Shown piece by piece: positions 6,000 to 58,362 of a stretch of 64,000 nt of DNA (position 1 is its first letter; each line of letters starts with the position of its first letter). The notes beneath the pieces are model-generated. The model had not been told where the DNA came from. It saw nothing but the letters and a program-made list of their open reading frames with translations, and did no database searches. A program made the translations under genes and the position numbers. The stretch is from contig CAYFWU010000004.1 in assembly GCA_964347025.1 (NCBI GenBank), positions 3,752 to 67,751 on the forward strand, read 5' to 3'. This stretch comes from an uncultured archaeon (GTDB lineage Archaea; Aenigmatarchaeota; Aenigmatarchaeia; QMZP01; QMZT01).

Positions 6000-6073
6000 A
6001 TGAATAGAATAAGAAAATAGTTAATAAAAATTTAAATGTTTAACACGACTAAAATAAACCAAGGAGGTTGAAA

Positions 6074-6838
6074 ATGAAAACGAAGTTTTACTGGATGATT
6101 TCTGTTTTAGTGATAGCGAGTTTCATTCTTTCGGTAACAGTCCTGCCAATCCAGGTAGAAGGAAAGGGGAAACCACAGAAGATCGTTTTTATCCATTACA
6201 AAAAGGGACACGCAAAGCCGACATGTAACAACAACGGAATCTGCGAGCCAGAGCTTGGAGAAAAAAAGAACTGTGCTGACTGCAAGAATGGAGGTGGAGA
6301 GGAAAGTACGTGCTACACATTCCTTGGAAAGGGAGTGAAATGGAGGGATTTGCCGGTGAATTACGTTATCCACCCGGACCTGGATACAGGAGCGATCTCA
6401 TCCGCTGCTTCCGAATGGGATTCCCATACTTCGGCGAATCTCGTTGGAAGCTATTCAATAGATAACGGAGCAACATGGGATGATGAAACGCCTGATGGAA
6501 GGAATGAAATGGTTTTCGGAGATTATTCACAGTCGGGAGTGATCGCGGTGACAATCATATGGGGATACTTCAACGGAAAGCCGAACACGAGAGAGATTCT
6601 CGAATTCGACATCCTCTTTGACACGGATTTCACATGGGGCGACGCGACAAAAGATCCTTCAGTGATGGATCTGCAGAATATAGCAACACATGAATTCGGG
6701 CACGGATTCGGCCTGGGAGATTTATACAACTCGGCATGTGTAGAGGAGACAATGTACGGCTACTCTTGGGAAGGAGACACGCAGAAAAGAGATCTGAATG
6801 CAGGTGATATCGTAGGGATACAGCAACTTTACGGATAA
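6074..6838 (+). CDS. secreted metzincin-type zinc metalloprotease (matrixin-like)
   Basis: ATG at 6074 lies 7 nt after AAGGAGG. Has an N-terminal hydrophobic signal, the zinc motif HEFGHGFGLGD and a downstream Met-turn candidate (ETMYGY). Confidence 0.65.
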   Translation: MKTKFYWMISVLVIASFILSVTVLPIQVEGKGKPQKIVFIHYKKGHAKPTCNNNGICEPELGEKKNCADCKNGGGEESTCYTFLGKGVKWRDLPVNYVIHPDLDTGAISSAASEWDSHTSANLVGSYSIDNGATWDDETPDGRNEMVFGDYSQSGVIAVTIIWGYFNGKPNTREILEFDILFDTDFTWGDATKDPSVMDLQNIATHEFGHGFGLGDLYNSACVEETMYGYSWEGDTQKRDLNAGDIVGIQQLYG

Positions 6839-6881
6839 ACCCCTTCTTTTAATTTTTATTTTGGTTAGGCCTACCAAAAGC

Positions 6882-6903
6882 TTTAAATATAACAGTGTTA
6901 TAT
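6882..6903 (+). promoter_or_regulatory. TATA-like box fused to perfect 7-3-7 inverted repeat, copy 1 (TTTAAATATAAC-AGT-GTTATAT)
   Basis: Intergenic, 78 nt upstream of the ATG of the redox operon. Near-identical modules occur at 13823-13844 and 16650-16670. Confidence 0.55.
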
Positions 6904-6980
6904 TGTTACTAATACCCGAAGACAAACTTTAAAAATCCAAAATCCGTCAAAAAGAAATGAGGGTTGAAAGAGGTGAATGC

Positions 6981-7220
6981 ATGGAAAAGAAAAAGGTGAA
7001 AGTTTATTCAACACCCACATGTCCATATTGTAAGATGGCAAAGGAATTTCTGAAGTCGAAGGGGGTTGAATTCAAGGACATAGATGTTTCAACCGACCAA
7101 AACGCAGCGAAGGAAATGATAGAGAAGTCAGGATCCAACGGAGTTCCTCAGATCGAGATCAACGGGAAGATAATAGTAGGTTTTGACAAAGAAGCGATAG
7201 AAAAGGAATTGGGATTGTAA
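6981..7220 (+). CDS. glutaredoxin-like small thioredoxin-fold protein (CPYC)
   Basis: 79 aa from the ATG at 6981. VKVYSTPTCPYCKMAKEFL...GVPQIEING matches the NrdH/glutaredoxin-like family. Confidence 0.8.
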   Translation: MEKKKVKVYSTPTCPYCKMAKEFLKSKGVEFKDIDVSTDQNAAKEMIEKSGSNGVPQIEINGKIIVGFDKEAIEKELGL

Positions 7221-7234
7221 ATTAGGGGGTTAAT

Positions 7235-7381
7235 ATGCCTGAGAAGAAATTTTGGAGATGTAATGTGTGCAATGACATACACTTCGGCATGGCTGGTCCC
7301 AAAATTTGTCCGACATGCCAGGCCGAGAACGCGTACGTTGAGATTGATAAAAAGGAAGCTCAGAAGGTTATGAGATTATGA
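7235..7381 (+). CDS. rubredoxin-like zinc/iron-ribbon protein (48 aa, below ORF-track cutoff)
   Basis: Translates to MPEKKFWRCNVCNDIHFGMAGPKICPTCQAENAYVEIDKKEAQKVMRL, with CxxC-x13-CxxC. An ATGA overlap couples it to the next gene. Confidence 0.55.
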   Translation: MPEKKFWRCNVCNDIHFGMAGPKICPTCQAENAYVEIDKKEAQKVMRL

Positions 7382-7659
7382 ATAAGGAAGACATTCGAAG
7401 GATTTGGGAAAGATTTGCAGAAAATAAGGATTTCATGCTCAATCCAGACGAGAAGCATGTAGATATGCTGGCAGACGGGGTTCTGGCGAATGAAAAGAAA
7501 TTCGGCCTTAAACTCTGTCCCTGCAGACTGAGGGACGGAACGAGAGAAACCGATCTCTCGCTAATATGCCCCTGCAACTTCAAAACCCAGGAAGTGTGGG
7601 CAAAGGAAGGTAGATGCTGGTGTGGATTGTTCATTAAAAGAAGTCATGATAAGAGGTGA
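7378..7659 (+). CDS. ferredoxin:thioredoxin reductase catalytic-subunit homolog (FTRc)
   Basis: 93 aa with the CPC-x16-CPC-x13-CWC pattern (LCPCR...ICPCN...CWCGLF), characteristic of the FTR catalytic chain. Confidence 0.75.
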   Translation: MNKEDIRRIWERFAENKDFMLNPDEKHVDMLADGVLANEKKFGLKLCPCRLRDGTRETDLSLICPCNFKTQEVWAKEGRCWCGLFIKRSHDKR

Positions 7660-7663
7660 TGGT

Positions 7664-8182
7664 ATGGTGAAATTGTGGAGATGCGAAATATGCGGGGACC
7701 CGTACATAGGAGAATCCGCTCCGGATAATTGTCCGTTCTGCGGAGCCCATAAGAAACACATAAAGGAAGCGAAGAACCTGAAGGTAAATTTCGATGTAGA
7801 GCTAAACGAGAAGGACAAGGCGAACGCTGAAAGAGCTTTGCAGGTGGAGGTGAGTAACGCAGCCTTCTACTTCTGCGCTGCCAAGAAAACGGACGATGAA
7901 GAGGGGAAGCTGTTGTTCAAGGCATTAGGGAAGGTGGAAGCAGAGCATGCAAGCATCTGGAAGAAGATACTTAAGATGGACAGCGTTCCGAAAGGTGAAG
8001 AGCCCTGCCATACGGACAACAAGGAAAACTTACAGGAATCGCACAACAGGGAGACGAGAGCGATCGAGTTCTACAGTAATGCCGCGAAAGAATCCGAGAA
8101 TCCCAGGGTCAAACAGATATTCGAGGCGTTGGTGGAGGTCGAAACGGATCATCTGCATCTTTCCGAGGAACGAATGAAATAA
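7664..8182 (+). CDS. reverse rubrerythrin-like protein (N-terminal rubredoxin-like domain + ferritin-like diiron domain)
   Basis: Start at the ATG at 7664 after AAGAGGTGA. Has WRCEICG...CPFCG followed by two ExxH motifs (EAEH, ETDH). Confidence 0.7.
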   Translation: MVKLWRCEICGDPYIGESAPDNCPFCGAHKKHIKEAKNLKVNFDVELNEKDKANAERALQVEVSNAAFYFCAAKKTDDEEGKLLFKALGKVEAEHASIWKKILKMDSVPKGEEPCHTDNKENLQESHNRETRAIEFYSNAAKESENPRVKQIFEALVEVETDHLHLSEERMK

Positions 8183-8193
8183 GGAGGATTAAT

Positions 8194-8694
8194 ATGGAAA
8201 CGAATGAAAACCTCATGAAGGCATTCGCAGGCGAGAGTCAAGCGAATAGAAGGTATCTGGCATTCGCGAAAAAGGCGGAGGAGGAAGGTTTCAAAAACAT
8301 TGCAAGACTCTTTCGAGCGGCCGCAAGAGCAGAGACAATTCATGCGCATAACCATCTCAGAACGGTCGGCGAGGTGAAATCAACCAAGGAGAACATCCAG
8401 GCAGCAATAAACGGTGAGAACTACGAATTCACAAAGATGTACCCTGGTTTCATAGAGAAGGCCAAGAGCGAAGGCAGTGAAGACGCGAGAAGGAGTTTCG
8501 ACTGGGCAAACCAGGTTGAAAAGATTCATCACGATCTTTACGAGAAAGCCTTGGAAAACCTGGGCCAGGGGAAGGATATAGAGTCAAAGGATTACTATGT
8601 CTGCCAGACTTGTGGGAACACTGTCGAAGGTTCTCCACCCGAGAGCTGTCCTATATGCGGCTTTCCTAAGAGTCAGTTTAAAAAGATAGAATAA
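8194..8694 (+). CDS. rbr: rubrerythrin
   Basis: 166 aa. Has an N-terminal diiron four-helix region (FAGESQANRRY, ETIHAHNH) and a C-terminal CQTCG...CPICG rubredoxin-like domain. Confidence 0.85.
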   Translation: METNENLMKAFAGESQANRRYLAFAKKAEEEGFKNIARLFRAAARAETIHAHNHLRTVGEVKSTKENIQAAINGENYEFTKMYPGFIEKAKSEGSEDARRSFDWANQVEKIHHDLYEKALENLGQGKDIESKDYYVCQTCGNTVEGSPPESCPICGFPKSQFKKIE

Positions 8695-8707
8695 TTAAGT
8701 GGTAAAA

Positions 8708-9082
8708 ATGACGAATGTAAATGAAGTGTATAAGTGTAATGTATGTGGTAACATTGTCGAAGTATTACATGCAGGAGTAGGTCAGCTCGTCTGCTGCGGC
8801 CAGCCGATGGAACTCTTGGAAGAAAAGACAGAGGACGAGGGGAAAGAGAAGCATGTCCCTGTCATCGAAAAGACAGAGACAGGAGTAAAGGTGAAGATCG
8901 GAAGCGTTCCCCACCCGATGGAGGAGAACCATCACATAGAGTGGATAGAATTGATTGGTGATGGAAGGACCTACAGAAAGTTCCTGAAACCTGGCGAAAA
9001 CCCCGAAGCAGAATTCGAGGTCACTGCGGCCAAGATAGAGGCGAGAGAGTATTGCAACGTCCACGGGCTGTGGAAGGCATGA
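8708..9082 (+). CDS. dfx: desulfoferrodoxin (2Fe superoxide reductase)
   Basis: Has an N-terminal desulforedoxin motif [12 protein letters not shown]...CCG and the SOR centre-II region HVPVI...[14 protein letters not shown]...CNVHGLW. An alternative GTG start lies at 8699. Confidence 0.85.
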
Positions 9083-12623: not shown

Positions 12624-13784
12624 TTATTTGAACCCGCTTATTTTCCTTAAATGTTCCACGACCTCTTTTATTGATTCTATCGTGTATCCTATTTCTTCAT
12701 CCGTGTTGAACTTCGATAGCGTCAGCCGGATGGATCCGCTTGCGAATTCCAGATCCTCGCAGACCGCCTGGAGGACGTGAGAGATGCCACCTTCCTTGAC
12801 CAGGAGATTGGAACAGGCTGAACCGGTTGAGGAAGCGATTCCCTTTGTGTCGAGATACATCATCAAGCTTTCCCCCTCCACTCCCCGGAATCCCACGTTA
12901 ACGTTGTTACAGAGTCTCCCATTCCCCTTGGGACCGTTTAACTTCGAGCCCTTTATCTTCAGGAGTTTGCCTATAAGCCTGTCCCTGAGTTTTTTCATTT
13001 TCTTGATATCCGTCTCCTTCGTCAGATCAACAGCCTTCCCGAGTCCGACTATGCCCGGGACGTTTTCCGTTCCTGCCCGCAGGCCTGATTCGTGTCTCCC
13101 TCCCGTCACCTCTTCCCTCAGCTTCACTCCCTTTCTCACGAACAACGCGCCAATACCCTTCGGTCCGTGGATCTTGTGTCCTGACAACGAGAGCAGATCT
13201 ACGTGCATCTTCTTTACATCTATCGGGACTTTCGTAAAACTCTGGACAGCGTCGGTATGGAACAGGACGCGATGTTTTTTGCAGATCTGCCCTATCTTAT
13301 CCAGAGGTTGAACAGTCCCTATCTCGTTGTTGGCGTGCATTATCGAAACGAGGATGGTTTTCTTCGTTATAGCCTTCTCCAGGGCTTTGAGATCAACAAA
13401 CCCTTCGTTGTCCACATCGAGAAGCTTGATTTCAAATCCCTCCTCCATGAGAGAATTACATGTGTTAAGGATCGCCGGATGCTCGATCTTCGAGGTAATG
13501 ATGTGATTTCCAAGGTGTTTGTTTGCATGGGCAATTCCCCTTAAGGCAAGGTTGTCTGATTCCGTCCCGCCTGAGGTGAATACGATTTCGGAGGGATCGG
13601 CGTTTATCTTTTTTGCAATGATAGATCTCGCTCTTTCCACCGCCTTTTTCGCTTCCTTGCCGAACTGGTGGATGCTTGCGGCATTTCCGAATTTCTCTGA
13701 AAAGTAGGGAAGCATTGCTTTAACAACTTTCTGATCCGTCATTGTGGTTGCCGCATTATCAAGATACACCCTCATGGAAATCAC
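12624..13784 (-). CDS. nifS: cysteine desulfurase (NifS/IscS class V aminotransferase)
   Basis: 386 aa. Has YLDNAATT, the PLP-Lys motif SLSGHKIHGPKG and the catalytic-Cys loop SSTGSACS. Confidence 0.85.
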   Translation of the reverse strand: MISMRVYLDNAATTMTDQKVVKAMLPYFSEKFGNAASIHQFGKEAKKAVERARSIIAKKINADPSEIVFTSGGTESDNLALRGIAHANKHLGNHIITSKIEHPAILNTCNSLMEEGFEIKLLDVDNEGFVDLKALEKAITKKTILVSIMHANNEIGTVQPLDKIGQICKKHRVLFHTDAVQSFTKVPIDVKKMHVDLLSLSGHKIHGPKGIGALFVRKGVKLREEVTGGRHESGLRAGTENVPGIVGLGKAVDLTKETDIKKMKKLRDRLIGKLLKIKGSKLNGPKGNGRLCNNVNVGFRGVEGESLMMYLDTKGIASSTGSACSNLLVKEGGISHVLQAVCEDLEFASGSIRLTLSKFNTDEEIGYTIESIKEVVEHLRKISGFK

Positions 13785-13822: not shown

Positions 13823-13844
13823 TTTAAATATAACACTGTTATAT
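13823..13844 (+). promoter_or_regulatory. TATA-like box fused to 7-3-7 inverted repeat, copy 2 (TTTAAATATAAC-ACT-GTTATAT)
   Basis: Lies in the divergent intergenic region between nifS (-) and the 112-aa nuclease-like gene (+). Confidence 0.5.
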
Positions 13845-13890: not shown

Positions 13891-14229
13891 ATGGTCAAGA
13901 GCTACGCGAGGGGGAGAAGATTCGAATACCACGTTGTTGATAAGCTGGCTAAACACGGCATAAACTCCCGGAGGGTCGCGTTATCCGGAAGGCAGCCCTC
14001 AGTGGACATACCGAACGCGGACATAGTTGTTGAGGAGAAATTTCTCGGCAAGGCGAAGACAACCAAGGCGAAGAAGTACGTATCCTTCCCCGAGAAAGAG
14101 ATAACTGAGTTGGAAAAGAAGGATCTGAACTTCCTCGTATTCAACTTCTCGAGAACAAACCCGTTTGTGGTGATAAGATTCGAGGATTTCGTGGAGCTCG
14201 TAAAGCTGTGGAAGGAGAAAAAACCCTAG
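13891..14229 (+). CDS. small PD-(D/E)XK-like protein, possibly a Holliday-junction-resolvase (Hjc)-related nuclease
   Basis: 112 aa. The arrangement (ARGRRFEY..V.KL.KHG....SG....D...ADIVV....KAK) loosely parallels Hjc, but the E-x-K motif is not clear. Confidence 0.3.
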   Translation: MVKSYARGRRFEYHVVDKLAKHGINSRRVALSGRQPSVDIPNADIVVEEKFLGKAKTTKAKKYVSFPEKEITELEKKDLNFLVFNFSRTNPFVVIRFEDFVELVKLWKEKKP

Positions 14230-16649: not shown

Positions 16650-16670
16650 TTAAATATAACAGTGTTATAT
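16650..16670 (+). promoter_or_regulatory. TATA-like box fused to 7-3-7 inverted repeat, copy 3 (TTAAATATAAC-AGT-GTTATAT)
   Basis: Lies 20 nt upstream of a 49-codon Cys-rich ORF. Its flanks (AAAAGCTT...TTA.TAATAC) also match copy 1. Confidence 0.5.
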
Positions 16671-16689: not shown

Positions 16690-16839
16690 ATGGACTGTAT
16701 AATATGCGGAAAAACCATTCCTGAAGAAAGAGGATACTATTGTTTAAAGAAGGACATGAAAGTCGCTTTTTGTAACAAGCATGCAATTAAATACTGTGGG
16801 AAATGCGAAGTTTCGAAATGTAAAGCTAAGAAAAAATAG
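16690..16839 (+). CDS. 49-aa Cys-rich zinc-finger-like protein (below ORF-track cutoff)
   Basis: Translates to MDCIICGKTIPEERGYYCLKKDMKVAFCNKHAIKYCGKCEVSKCKAKKK. Has 7 Cys including two CxxC pairs. Confidence 0.35.
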   Translation: MDCIICGKTIPEERGYYCLKKDMKVAFCNKHAIKYCGKCEVSKCKAKKK

Positions 16840-24836: not shown

Positions 24837-24853
24837 CAATAACACCGTTATAT
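24837..24853. promoter_or_regulatory. degenerate fourth copy of the 7-3-7 palindrome (CAATAAC-ACC-GTTATAT) abutting a TATTTATAAA box
   Basis: Lies between divergent genes 24574-24831 (-) and 24882-25217 (+). The right arm is perfect and the left arm matches 5 of 7. Confidence 0.3.
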
Positions 24854-24881
24854 TTATAAACCCTTCTTCCATCTTAATTTA

Positions 24882-25217
24882 ATGAAGCCATTCTGCGAAT
24901 ACATAACATCAGAAATCCTTCCAGGCGTTCGCGCGCTCATTGCAAAGAAGATGATAGAGGATCATGGGATCACGCAGAGCAAGGCAGCAGAACTTCTGGA
25001 TACCACACAGCCCGCGATTTCTCACTACAAGAGAGATTTAAGGGGAATGAAAATCTCCCTCCTTAAGAAACACCCGGAAATCATGGAGATGGTTGACTCC
25101 ATCGCGAAAAGAATAATGAGCGGTGAGGTTTCTTCCAAAAATACAGATCAGGAATTCTGTTCAATATGCAGATACATGCAAAAACACGATCTTATCCAAA
25201 ACACAACTTCTAAATAA
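24882..25217 (+). CDS. HTH-type transcriptional regulator (small archaeal XRE/COG2522-like)
   Basis: 111 aa. GITQSKAAELLDTTQPAISHYKRDLRG is a helix-turn-helix. The C-terminal part contains a CSIC motif. Confidence 0.5.
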   Translation: MKPFCEYITSEILPGVRALIAKKMIEDHGITQSKAAELLDTTQPAISHYKRDLRGMKISLLKKHPEIMEMVDSIAKRIMSGEVSSKNTDQEFCSICRYMQKHDLIQNTTSK

Positions 25218-57927: not shown

Positions 57928-57942
57928 TTTACCCACCTCCTT

Positions 57943-57962
57943 AATATCGGTCACCCGATATT
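57943..57962. promoter_or_regulatory. inverted repeat AATATCGG-TCAC-CCGATATT (putative operator 1)
   Basis: Perfect 8-4-8 palindrome between a TATA-like box and the start of the 46-aa Cys-rich ORF. Confidence 0.45.
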
Positions 57963-57989
57963 ATATAAAACACCACTGATATATAAAGT

Positions 57990-58005
57990 TATCGGTTATC
58001 CGATA
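57990..58005. promoter_or_regulatory. inverted repeat TATCGG-TTAT-CCGATA (putative operator 2)
   Basis: Perfect 6-4-6 palindrome with the same ATCGG-N4-CCGAT core, between ATATATAAAG and the PadR-like ORF. Confidence 0.45.
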
Positions 58006-58020
58006 TATATTTAGGAAGAG

Positions 58021-58362
58021 ATGAACCTTTTATATAGGACATCCGATACTATAATTATGGAATGCTGCGACATGAAAGGATTCCTCTCCTATCTTGTATT
58101 ATGGAATCTCAGTAAGAAGAAGATGACTGGAGCAGAGCTAGCGAAGGAACTGGAAAAAAGGAAAGGAACAAAACCCAGCCCGGGGACCATATATCCCGCC
58201 TTAAAGGAACTGAAAGAAAAGGGCTTCATAAAGGCAGACAAGAAGAAGGTTTATTCTTTAACCAAAAAAGGACAAAAGGAGCTAGAAGACGCGTGCAAAT
58301 TTTTCTGCAAGATGTTCTACGACATGAAAGAGATGTCCAAATGTTGTGAATGTTTTAAATAA
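58021..58362 (+). CDS. PadR-family transcriptional regulator with Cys-rich termini
   Basis: 113 aa. LSYLVLWNL.KKKMTGAELAKELEKRKGTKPSPGTIYPALKELKEKGFI is a PadR wHTH. Has an N-terminal MECCD and a C-terminal CKFFCK...CCEC. Internal ATGs at 58057 and 58072 are alternative starts. Confidence 0.65.
   Translation: MNLLYRTSDTIIMECCDMKGFLSYLVLWNLSKKKMTGAELAKELEKRKGTKPSPGTIYPALKELKEKGFIKADKKKVYSLTKKGQKELEDACKFFCKMFYDMKEMSKCCECFK

Follow-up and report, generated by a model that had tools for sequence, protein, structure and literature searches.

A 17-bp palindrome shared by promoters and the replication origin of Aenigmarchaeota, with a small helix-turn-helix protein as its candidate regulator

This work concerns a palindromic DNA motif, ATATAACA-N-TGTTATAT, that recurs in a 64,000-nucleotide stretch from an uncultured archaeon of the Aenigmarchaeota (hereafter the window, meaning that whole stretch: C4:3752-67751 of a 1.06-Mb genome in 40 contigs, 43% G+C). 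We consider it moderately probable that this motif is the operator of a homodimeric 111-aa helix-turn-helix (HTH) protein that regulates iron–sulfur (Fe-S) and stress genes, and that the same protein also acts at the replication origin (oriC). The most conserved sites are those at the centre of oriC, upstream of orc1/cdc6, and in the adjacent metallophosphoesterase promoter. Both are outside the window and were therefore invisible to an earlier note on this DNA, which had been made from the letters of the window and had proposed a small redox regulon. In the following, G000 is the window's own genome, other G-numbers are its relatives, and f3 and f6 are families of the order.

Results

A perfect 17-bp palindrome in the window

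A pattern search of the window with at most two mismatches gave 4 matches against 0.18 expected, a number reached by 0/100 shuffles (PWM, position weight matrix):

6887-6903, strandless: operator copy 1, ATATAACAGTGTTATAT, PWM score 30.2
13828-13844, strandless: operator copy 2, ATATAACACTGTTATAT, between the divergent nifS and 112-aa genes
16654-16670, strandless: operator copy 3, ATATAACAGTGTTATAT, PWM score 32.2, the best of the genome
24837-24853, strandless: operator copy 4, degenerate, CAATAACACCGTTATAT, PWM score 18.3

The three copies described in the earlier note are exact matches, at 6887, 13828 and 16654, and their symmetry, given there as 7-3-7, is in fact 8-1-8 (ATATAACA / TGTTATAT). 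As the note had seen, a TATA-like box (TTTAAATA or TTAAATA) overlaps the left arm in all three: AAAAGC-TTTAAATA, which resembles a B recognition element (BRE) followed by a TATA box, overlaps the left arm of copy 1 (6877-6889), TTTAAATA at 13823-13830 is fused to copy 2, and AAAAGC-TTAAATA directly precedes copy 3. The additional similarity between the flanks of copies 1 and 3 is also real (AAAAGCTT upstream and TTAnTAATAC downstream), and a third promoter, at C20:10153, has the same flanks. What had to be given up is an orientation of the motif toward plus-strand genes, since a palindrome has none and copy 2 lies between nifS on the minus strand and the divergent 112-aa gene on the plus strand. 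The fourth copy abuts the TATA box TTTATAAA (24853-24860) and is a probable autoregulatory site of the HTH gene that begins at 24882, 29 bp further downstream.

Between the stop codon of a Peptidase_M10-like gene (6068-6838) and copy 1, a 20-bp near-palindrome, TTTGGTTAGGCCTACCAAAA, is present at 6860-6879, possibly a hairpin of the terminator kind or a further binding site. No known RNA family was found in the window between 6000 and 26000.

Distribution and placement of the sites

A pattern search of G000 gave 4 exact copies, 8 with at most one mismatch and 11 with at most two. When the genome was scanned with a weight matrix built solely from the sites of other genomes (score threshold 14), 14 sites scored above 14 against 0.2 in Markov-shuffled controls, and 12/14 are intergenic though crude open reading frames (ORFs) cover 92% of the genome; this is the intergenic enrichment for which the earlier note had recommended a genome-wide search. 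Across the order (41 genomes, G000 included), the 17-mer with at most one mismatch is found in 35/41 genomes, the reversed control giving almost nothing, and the number of sites varies from 0 to 36 per ∼1-Mb genome.

The neighbourhoods of 130 sites were fetched from 11 genomes, and the genes starting beside them were clustered. These sites are mostly outside crude ORFs of at least 90 aa (108/130) and cluster 10-120 bp upstream of start codons. Their information content drops to background beyond the 17 bp, most copies conserving nothing further out, and the best-conserved positions are those of the non-TATA core AAC...GTT. TATA boxes concentrate at −3 to −7 and at +16 to +30 relative to the site. 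Indeed, in 15/93 site-gene pairs a TATA box of strict consensus begins 3-7 bp ahead of the site and overlaps its left arm, which is the layout of the Grx operon, the CARDB gene, the 112-aa gene and the 49-aa ORF, and it abuts or overlaps the right arm in a further layout (14/93) seen at nifS, nifU, the metallophosphoesterase gene and the HTH regulator's own gene. These numbers bear out the proposal that the operator overlaps core promoter elements. We regard it as highly likely that the motif is a protein operator, and its perfect dyad fits a dimeric factor.

In some relatives, three copies of the operator form tight arrays, with spacings of 30-70 bp, away from oriC:

G035, C6:42741-42885: operator array
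G004, C1:3746-3836: operator array
G024, L026 3982-4060: operator array
G024, L028 4006-4129: operator array

The arrays of G024 precede a radical-SAM gene and an unknown 256-aa gene. Such an arrangement suggests cooperative binding at some promoters.

The palindrome at the replication origin

A site lies at most 350 bp upstream of the main orc1/cdc6 gene in every genome of the order that has this gene (39/39, G000 included), and likewise in 9/9 genomes from six other families of the class. The count for the order combines orc1/cdc6 coordinates, site coordinates and a direct reading of the remaining upstream regions. In the 48/48 genomes examined, the origin site is located between inverted Orc1-binding boxes (origin recognition boxes, ORBs), and in G012, G036 and G039 the orc1/cdc6 site is the only canonical site of the genome. 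The layout is fixed in the window's family, where an inverted ORB is followed by 30-45 bp of AT-rich DNA, the palindrome, 2-4 nt, the mini-ORB TTTCCAGTGGAAAT, an ORB with its G-string, a TATA box and finally orc1/cdc6. In G024, the DNA that separates the metallophosphoesterase gene from orc1/cdc6 has five palindromes, interleaved with an AT-rich stretch and with canonical ORBs (e.g. CTCCATAGGAAACGATGGGGTGG). The palindrome itself differs from the ORB core TTCCAnnGGAAA, which usually comes with a G-string, and canonical ORBs flank it. Since these ORBs adjoin the palindrome and G000 has a single Orc1/Cdc6, the palindrome is best seen as a second, distinct element of the origin.

In G000, the gene order over C1:33217-36057 is orc1/cdc6, a 298-aa protein, an operator and the 224-aa metallophosphoesterase. 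The 298-aa protein is weakly similar to the OB-fold part of the PolD small subunit DP1 (PDB 5ihe, E=5e-4), and no canonical DP1 phosphoesterase domain (PF04042) was found anywhere in G000. From these matches, DP1 may be split or replaced in this genome, with its phosphoesterase part under operator control.

Linkage between the palindrome and the HTH gene

The palindrome core ATAAC-N3-GTTAT is found upstream of the HTH gene in ∼27/30 loci of the order. Most of these copies are fused to TTTATAAA, and most have a G or C among their central positions, which makes these sites weaker. Seven further HTH loci all have the core, including variants in family f6 and in G038, and it is upstream of the HTH gene in 13/15 loci from other families of the class. 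At some of the latter, the palindrome is placed between the TATA box and the ATG rather than upstream of the TATA box. Gene and palindrome stay together even where the placement relative to the TATA box shifts, which argues for a functional autoregulatory site and not for simple inheritance.

Besides, public genomes were scanned with the recognition-helix peptide T[TS]QPAIS[HQ]Y, which revealed homologues in Micrarchaeota, Promethearchaeota, Thorarchaeota, Hermodarchaeota, Bathyarchaeia, Methanomethylicota and Nanoarchaeota. Of the 22 loci scanned outside the Aenigmarchaeota, about half display the palindrome, or a sequence very like it, at a distance of 23-51 bp before the HTH gene, and in 4/5 Asgard loci the palindrome flanks the small operon that holds this gene. 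In Micrarchaeota, nifS-nifU-sufS and the HTH gene diverge, and the site is in the intergenic region that they share. The neighbours of the HTH gene are cysteine-synthase-like genes together with TusA and DsrE in Bathyarchaeota, Mrp/NBP35 in Thorarchaeota and, in Nanoarchaeota, a member of the AP_endonuc_2 TIM-barrel family, which is also a target in G000, G024 and G028.

In 13 genomes of the phylum without the HTH gene, the motif is at background (3 sites vs 3 control matches), and 15 sister genomes with the gene have 21 sites vs 7 control matches, several sites being immediately before the gene. No other recurrent regulator gene was found beside the 130 sites of the 11 genomes. In G038, one and the same variant, TTAC/GTAA, is found at the HTH promoter and at both oriC sites, which indicates that one factor reads all these sites; a single co-varying lineage was found because the operator is nearly invariant across the phylum. 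The HTH protein at 24882 had been named as a possible regulator in the earlier note and is the best candidate by the sites in its own promoter across relatives and phyla. The symmetry of the operator and the conserved site in that promoter also suit XRE-type regulators, which bind palindromes as dimers and frequently control their own genes. On these sequence associations, it is the likely binder of the palindrome.

The candidate regulator

Homologues of the 111-aa protein are present in 37/41 genomes of the order, with one or two copies each, and in 137/151 genomes sampled from the phylum. A profile search returned 722 cluster representatives at E<=1e-10, of which the best 150 are nearly all 90-150 aa long. 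Three close homologues have a precomputed match to PF01381, and a PDB sequence search with the 111-aa protein gave the HTH protein 2a6c as best match (E=0.0015), besides weak HTH and unrelated matches. Its AlphaFold2 model is all-alpha, with six helices and a mean pLDDT of 80. Cys5 and Cys93-x2-Cys96 are invariant in the close family (alignment A1) and recur in distant homologues, and many homologues carry an extra C...CxxC tail. An NCBIfam search with the protein gave noise only, and a search of the literature on the HTH family (COG2522) or on the motif found no description.

A second regulator paralogue of 140-160 aa, with the recognition helix LTEAAVSNY, occurs in the f3 genomes G024 (L037 3437-3859), G028 (C14) and G031 (C7). 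The gene in G024 is 160 bp from an operator copy, and the f3 genomes with this paralogue are those with most sites (17-36).

Two other proteins were considered. A 241-aa XRE protein beside oriC (G000 C1:32495-33220) was rejected as binder, having no site upstream in G000; it has an N-terminal XRE HTH (HTH_19 and HTH_3 above cut-off), and in G028 it is directly beside three oriC palindromes. The HTH protein at 58021, the other regulator suggested in the earlier note, looks PadR-like and has different palindromes of its own. Read by eye, 58021-58362 would encode a PadR-type winged-helix protein of 113 aa with Cys-rich ends (MECCD..., ...CCECFK), and the palindromes upstream of it (57930-58020, e.g. 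TATCGGTTATCCGATA and ATCGGTCACCCGAT) look like a separate autoregulated operator.

Genes beside the sites

The genes associated with sites in G000 are the following:

6957-9082, plus strand: Grx operon as a whole, downstream of copy 1
likely start 6981, plus strand: glutaredoxin (Grx), first gene of the copy-1 operon
7378-7659, plus strand: catalytic chain of ferredoxin-thioredoxin reductase (FTR), Pfam FeThRed_B
7622-8182, plus strand: rubrerythrin-like, copy-1 operon, Pfam Rubrerythrin/RUBY_RBDX
8194-8694, plus strand: rubrerythrin, copy-1 operon, Pfam Rubrerythrin/RUBY_RBDX
8699-9082, plus strand: desulfoferrodoxin, Pfam Desulfoferrodox
12624-13784, minus strand: NifS/IscS-type cysteine desulfurase beside copy 2, orthologues of which flank sites in 4 genomes
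13891-14229, plus strand: 112-aa PDDEXK-like gene, separated from nifS by copy 2, weak Pfam PDDEXK_15 match (E=0.004)
16690-16839, plus strand: 49-aa Cys-rich ORF, a putative gene starting 19 nt after copy 3
24882-25217, plus strand: 111-aa XRE-like HTH gene, candidate regulator, with copy 4 upstream
site C14:16782: NifU fused to a DUF59-type domain
site C14:20171: ArsP_1 permease with a Cys-rich YHS/TRASH-like N-terminus, read by eye and without a profile match
site C20:10153: CARDB surface protein
site C13:21486: AP_endonuc_2 TIM-barrel protein
site C1:33928: metallophosphoesterase
site C1:36161: orc1/cdc6, the site being 104 bp upstream of the gene and directly abutting the canonical mini-ORB TTCCACTGGAAAC

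The gene calls previously made downstream of copy 1 agree with the ORFs and Pfam matches. The 49-aa ORF has no Pfam match and no homologue in the fetched DNA. Another operator copy of G000 is found with the TATA box AAGCTTTATAAG in C30:2433-2560, followed by an unrelated palindrome, TGTAACTA-N5-TAGTTACA, before a 91-aa ORF for which no family match was found.

In the 11 genomes, the gene beside a site is orc1/cdc6 in 11/11, the metallophosphoesterase gene in 8/11, nifS in 4/11, and the YHS/ArsP permease and nifU-DUF59 genes in 3/11 each, the remaining neighbours being lineage-specific. The nifS arrangement of copy 2 recurs in G002, G010 and G014, and the G002 orthologue of the 112-aa gene likewise adjoins a site. 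Fe-S assembly genes are thus a repeated target theme within the family, and the Fe-S part of the thiol, Fe-S and oxidative-stress theme proposed in the earlier note stands because NifS, NifU-DUF59 and the YHS permease are recurrent. Its antioxidant part does not extend to relatives: the FTR gene is present in 15/41 genomes (and in neither of the two same-genus genomes), and it has a site within 1.5 kb in 2/15, G000 and G020 only. Conservation upstream of orthologous operons therefore holds for nifS (4 genomes) and fails for the FTR operon, which appears to be a recent recruit to the regulon. Nor is the regulon small and restricted to redox functions, given the 0-36 sites of relatives, which also front genes for DNA repair, ribonucleotide reductase (RNR), isoprenoid synthesis and surface proteins. 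In G024, for instance, sites precede the genes of the Lhr helicase, Dpo4, class II RNR, a radical-SAM enzyme, HMG-CoA synthase and isopentenyl diphosphate (IPP) isomerase.

Discussion

Several observations weigh against an Fe-S-responsive HTH regulator that reads both promoters and origin. The match of the 111-aa protein to Pfam HTH_3 (PF01381) is weak (20.4 bits, below the 23-bit cut-off), and a Foldseek search against the PDB gave no significant match, the best (ClgR, C.Esp1396I and P22 c2) having E>0.5 and a TM of ∼0.33. Family f6 includes genomes with the HTH gene and almost no canonical sites. In the f3 lineages G028, G031, G034 and G037, Cys5 and the first cysteine of the CxxC have been lost, yet each lineage has 17-36 sites, so that cysteine-based sensing cannot be universal. 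Like the HTH gene, orc1/cdc6 always has a site upstream, and linkage between gene and site alone therefore cannot exclude Orc1 or another binder. Many sites are upstream of the TATA box, a position that permits activation by archaeal factors; SurR and TrmBL1 are able to activate from sites just upstream of it, so that the regulation could be of either sign. A sequencing-run search for the sequence of G000 returned DNA metagenome runs only and no RNA runs.

Among published cases, the ucm motif of the Sulfolobus/Saccharolobus oriC1 comes closest; it is essential and located midway between the inverted ORB2 and ORB3 (Dhanaraju et al. 2025, PMC12141716). It is bound by UBP, a protein that contacts MCM and also binds 329 mostly intergenic sites on the chromosome and influences gene expression (PMC12141716). 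Both systems place a motif between the inverted ORBs of an orc1-linked origin and spread it through intergenic DNA genome-wide. UBP is a 111-aa, beta-rich, strand-swapped saddle that sits as a monomer on an 11-bp site and is restricted to Sulfolobales and Desulfurococcales (PMC12141716), whereas the motif described here is a perfect 17-bp dyad and its candidate binder is predicted to be all-alpha and XRE-like, with conserved cysteines, a site in its own promoter and a link to Fe-S/sulfur genes. In addition, a PDB sequence search with our 111-aa protein gave no match named UBP.

This comparison bears on the alternative that survives best, which we nevertheless deem unlikely: the binder would be a different dimeric protein, UBP-like and either an origin accessory or a nucleoid-associated factor, and the HTH gene merely one of its conserved targets. 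Such a protein would suit the facts that the oriC site is the most conserved of all (48/48 genomes), that some lineages rich in sites have an HTH protein without the cysteine triad, and that 0-36 sites per genome precede unrelated genes, much like the 329 intergenic sites of UBP (PMC12141716). However, no other DNA-binding gene is recurrent beside the sites, the linkage between HTH gene and site spans phyla, including Fe-S/sulfur loci where no origin context is seen, and the genomes without the HTH gene show the motif at background level only.

We find it very improbable that the palindrome is a variant ORB read by Orc1/Cdc6, which would act at promoters as a transcription factor as well. An Orc1 paralogue of Sulfolobus does regulate genes, the site is always upstream of orc1/cdc6, and the palindrome centre CAnTG resembles the dyad of the mini-ORB TTCCAGTGGAA. 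Against this, every origin has canonical G-string ORBs right beside the palindrome, an ORB is read asymmetrically by a monomer, in contrast to the perfect 8-bp dyad of the arms here, the single Orc1/Cdc6 of G000 leaves no second paralogue as binder (a candidate that we rejected on this ground), and the motif accompanies the HTH gene at Fe-S/sulfur loci of other phyla. Least probable of all is a generic strong bidirectional promoter with back-to-back TATA-like halves, or a small dispersed repeat, without a dedicated binder: both arms are TATA-like (ATATAA / TTATAT) and copies 1, 3 and C20:10153 are alike over ∼40 nt including BRE/TATA, but conservation peaks at the non-TATA AAC...GTT core, the position varies relative to real TATA boxes and start codons, the motif is in the origin centre where no gene starts, just 12-14 of the ∼1100 genes of G000 have it, and a dispersed repeat or miniature inverted-repeat transposable element is rejected by the fall of information to background outside the 17 bp, beyond which most copies are not conserved, and by the concentration of sites 10-120 bp upstream of starts.

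With the HTH protein as binder, a homodimer would contact the operator with one reading head per 8-bp arm, and the genomic binding motif of the protein is predicted to be ATATAACAnTGTTATAT. At promoters, the dimer would compete with TBP/TFB or RNA polymerase; since its presence on the operator would exclude them, the factor would be mainly a repressor, which would also repress its own gene via the weaker site. It would tune nifS, nifU-DUF59 and the YHS permease and, in G000, the Grx/FTR/rubrerythrin/desulfoferrodoxin operon in addition. The three cysteines would be ligands of an Fe-S cluster or make up a thiol switch, either of which would report Fe-S/redox status, as proposed from the cysteine triad by analogy with IscR and SufR. 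We view sensing of the Fe-S or redox state by this protein as quite possible, if somewhat short of probable. At the origin, the same protein would occupy the centre of oriC, where two MCM hexamers would be loaded. Once bound, it could be a requirement for firing, like UBP, or an obstacle to it, and its occupancy could link origin firing or orc1 expression to Fe-S/redox status. For a functional role in replication initiation, in either direction, we see the balance as even.

The features of the candidate recall IscR (Rrf2 family) and SufR, which are small dimeric regulators with three conserved cysteines and a palindrome in their own promoter and in those of cysteine desulfurase/scaffold genes, often adjacent to them. 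In the Rrf2 family, these cysteines and a fourth ligand hold an Fe-S cluster. They differ in that the present candidate is an archaeal protein that would act at a TBP/TFB promoter and that its proposed operator is also within the replication origin; moreover, neither an Rrf2-type domain (PF02082) nor an ArsR-type winged helix was found in the 111-aa protein by Pfam and NCBIfam searches. Bacterial regulators that also bind oriC include ArcA of E. coli, HP1021 of Helicobacter pylori, CtrA of Caulobacter and MtrA of Mycobacterium. They share with our system the principle of a state-responsive factor with sites in a regulon and inside the origin, but are response regulators acting at DnaA-type origins, in contrast to the XRE-like candidate at an archaeal Orc1/MCM origin. 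Among archaeal proteins, SurR of Thermococcales is a cysteine-bearing redox regulator whose effect depends on the position of its site relative to BRE/TATA. Its motif, GTTn3AAC, is the reverse arrangement of the AACn3GTT found here. We know of no origin site reported for SurR or for OxsR of Haloferax. The latter resembles our candidate as a cysteine-bearing archaeal regulator of redox genes, and its effect, too, varies with where its site is placed relative to BRE/TATA (PMC9426492). Both differ from it as ArsR- or TrmB-type winged-helix proteins with other motifs. The system described here thus probably combines an autoregulated repressor of the Fe-S type with an origin accessory motif of the ucm type, the same operator and the same protein serving in both roles.

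To conclude, the HTH-palindrome pair is found in several archaeal phyla and is a testable candidate for an Fe-S/sulfur regulator; the literature searched yielded no archaeal regulator of Fe-S or sulfur status. That it can be tested with recombinant protein matters since these archaea are uncultured. The authors of the UBP study asked whether other archaeal lineages have analogous origin proteins (PMC12141716), a question that becomes testable with a 17-bp element at the equivalent position of the origin and a candidate protein in 137/151 genomes of the phylum. Should one sensor act at both promoters and origin, the initiation of replication would be coupled to a metabolic signal. To our knowledge, no earlier example of such coupling exists in archaea. 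We also put forward, as a speculative and rather unlikely extension, that an Fe-S/redox-sensing factor is built into the origin of Aenigmarchaeota, and perhaps of other DPANN archaea, where the loading or exit of MCM would be licensed by an adequate Fe-S supply. The operator between the two ORBs would then do what ucm and UBP do in Sulfolobus. If true, chromosome replication in these archaea would pass through a metabolic checkpoint that is part of the origin itself.

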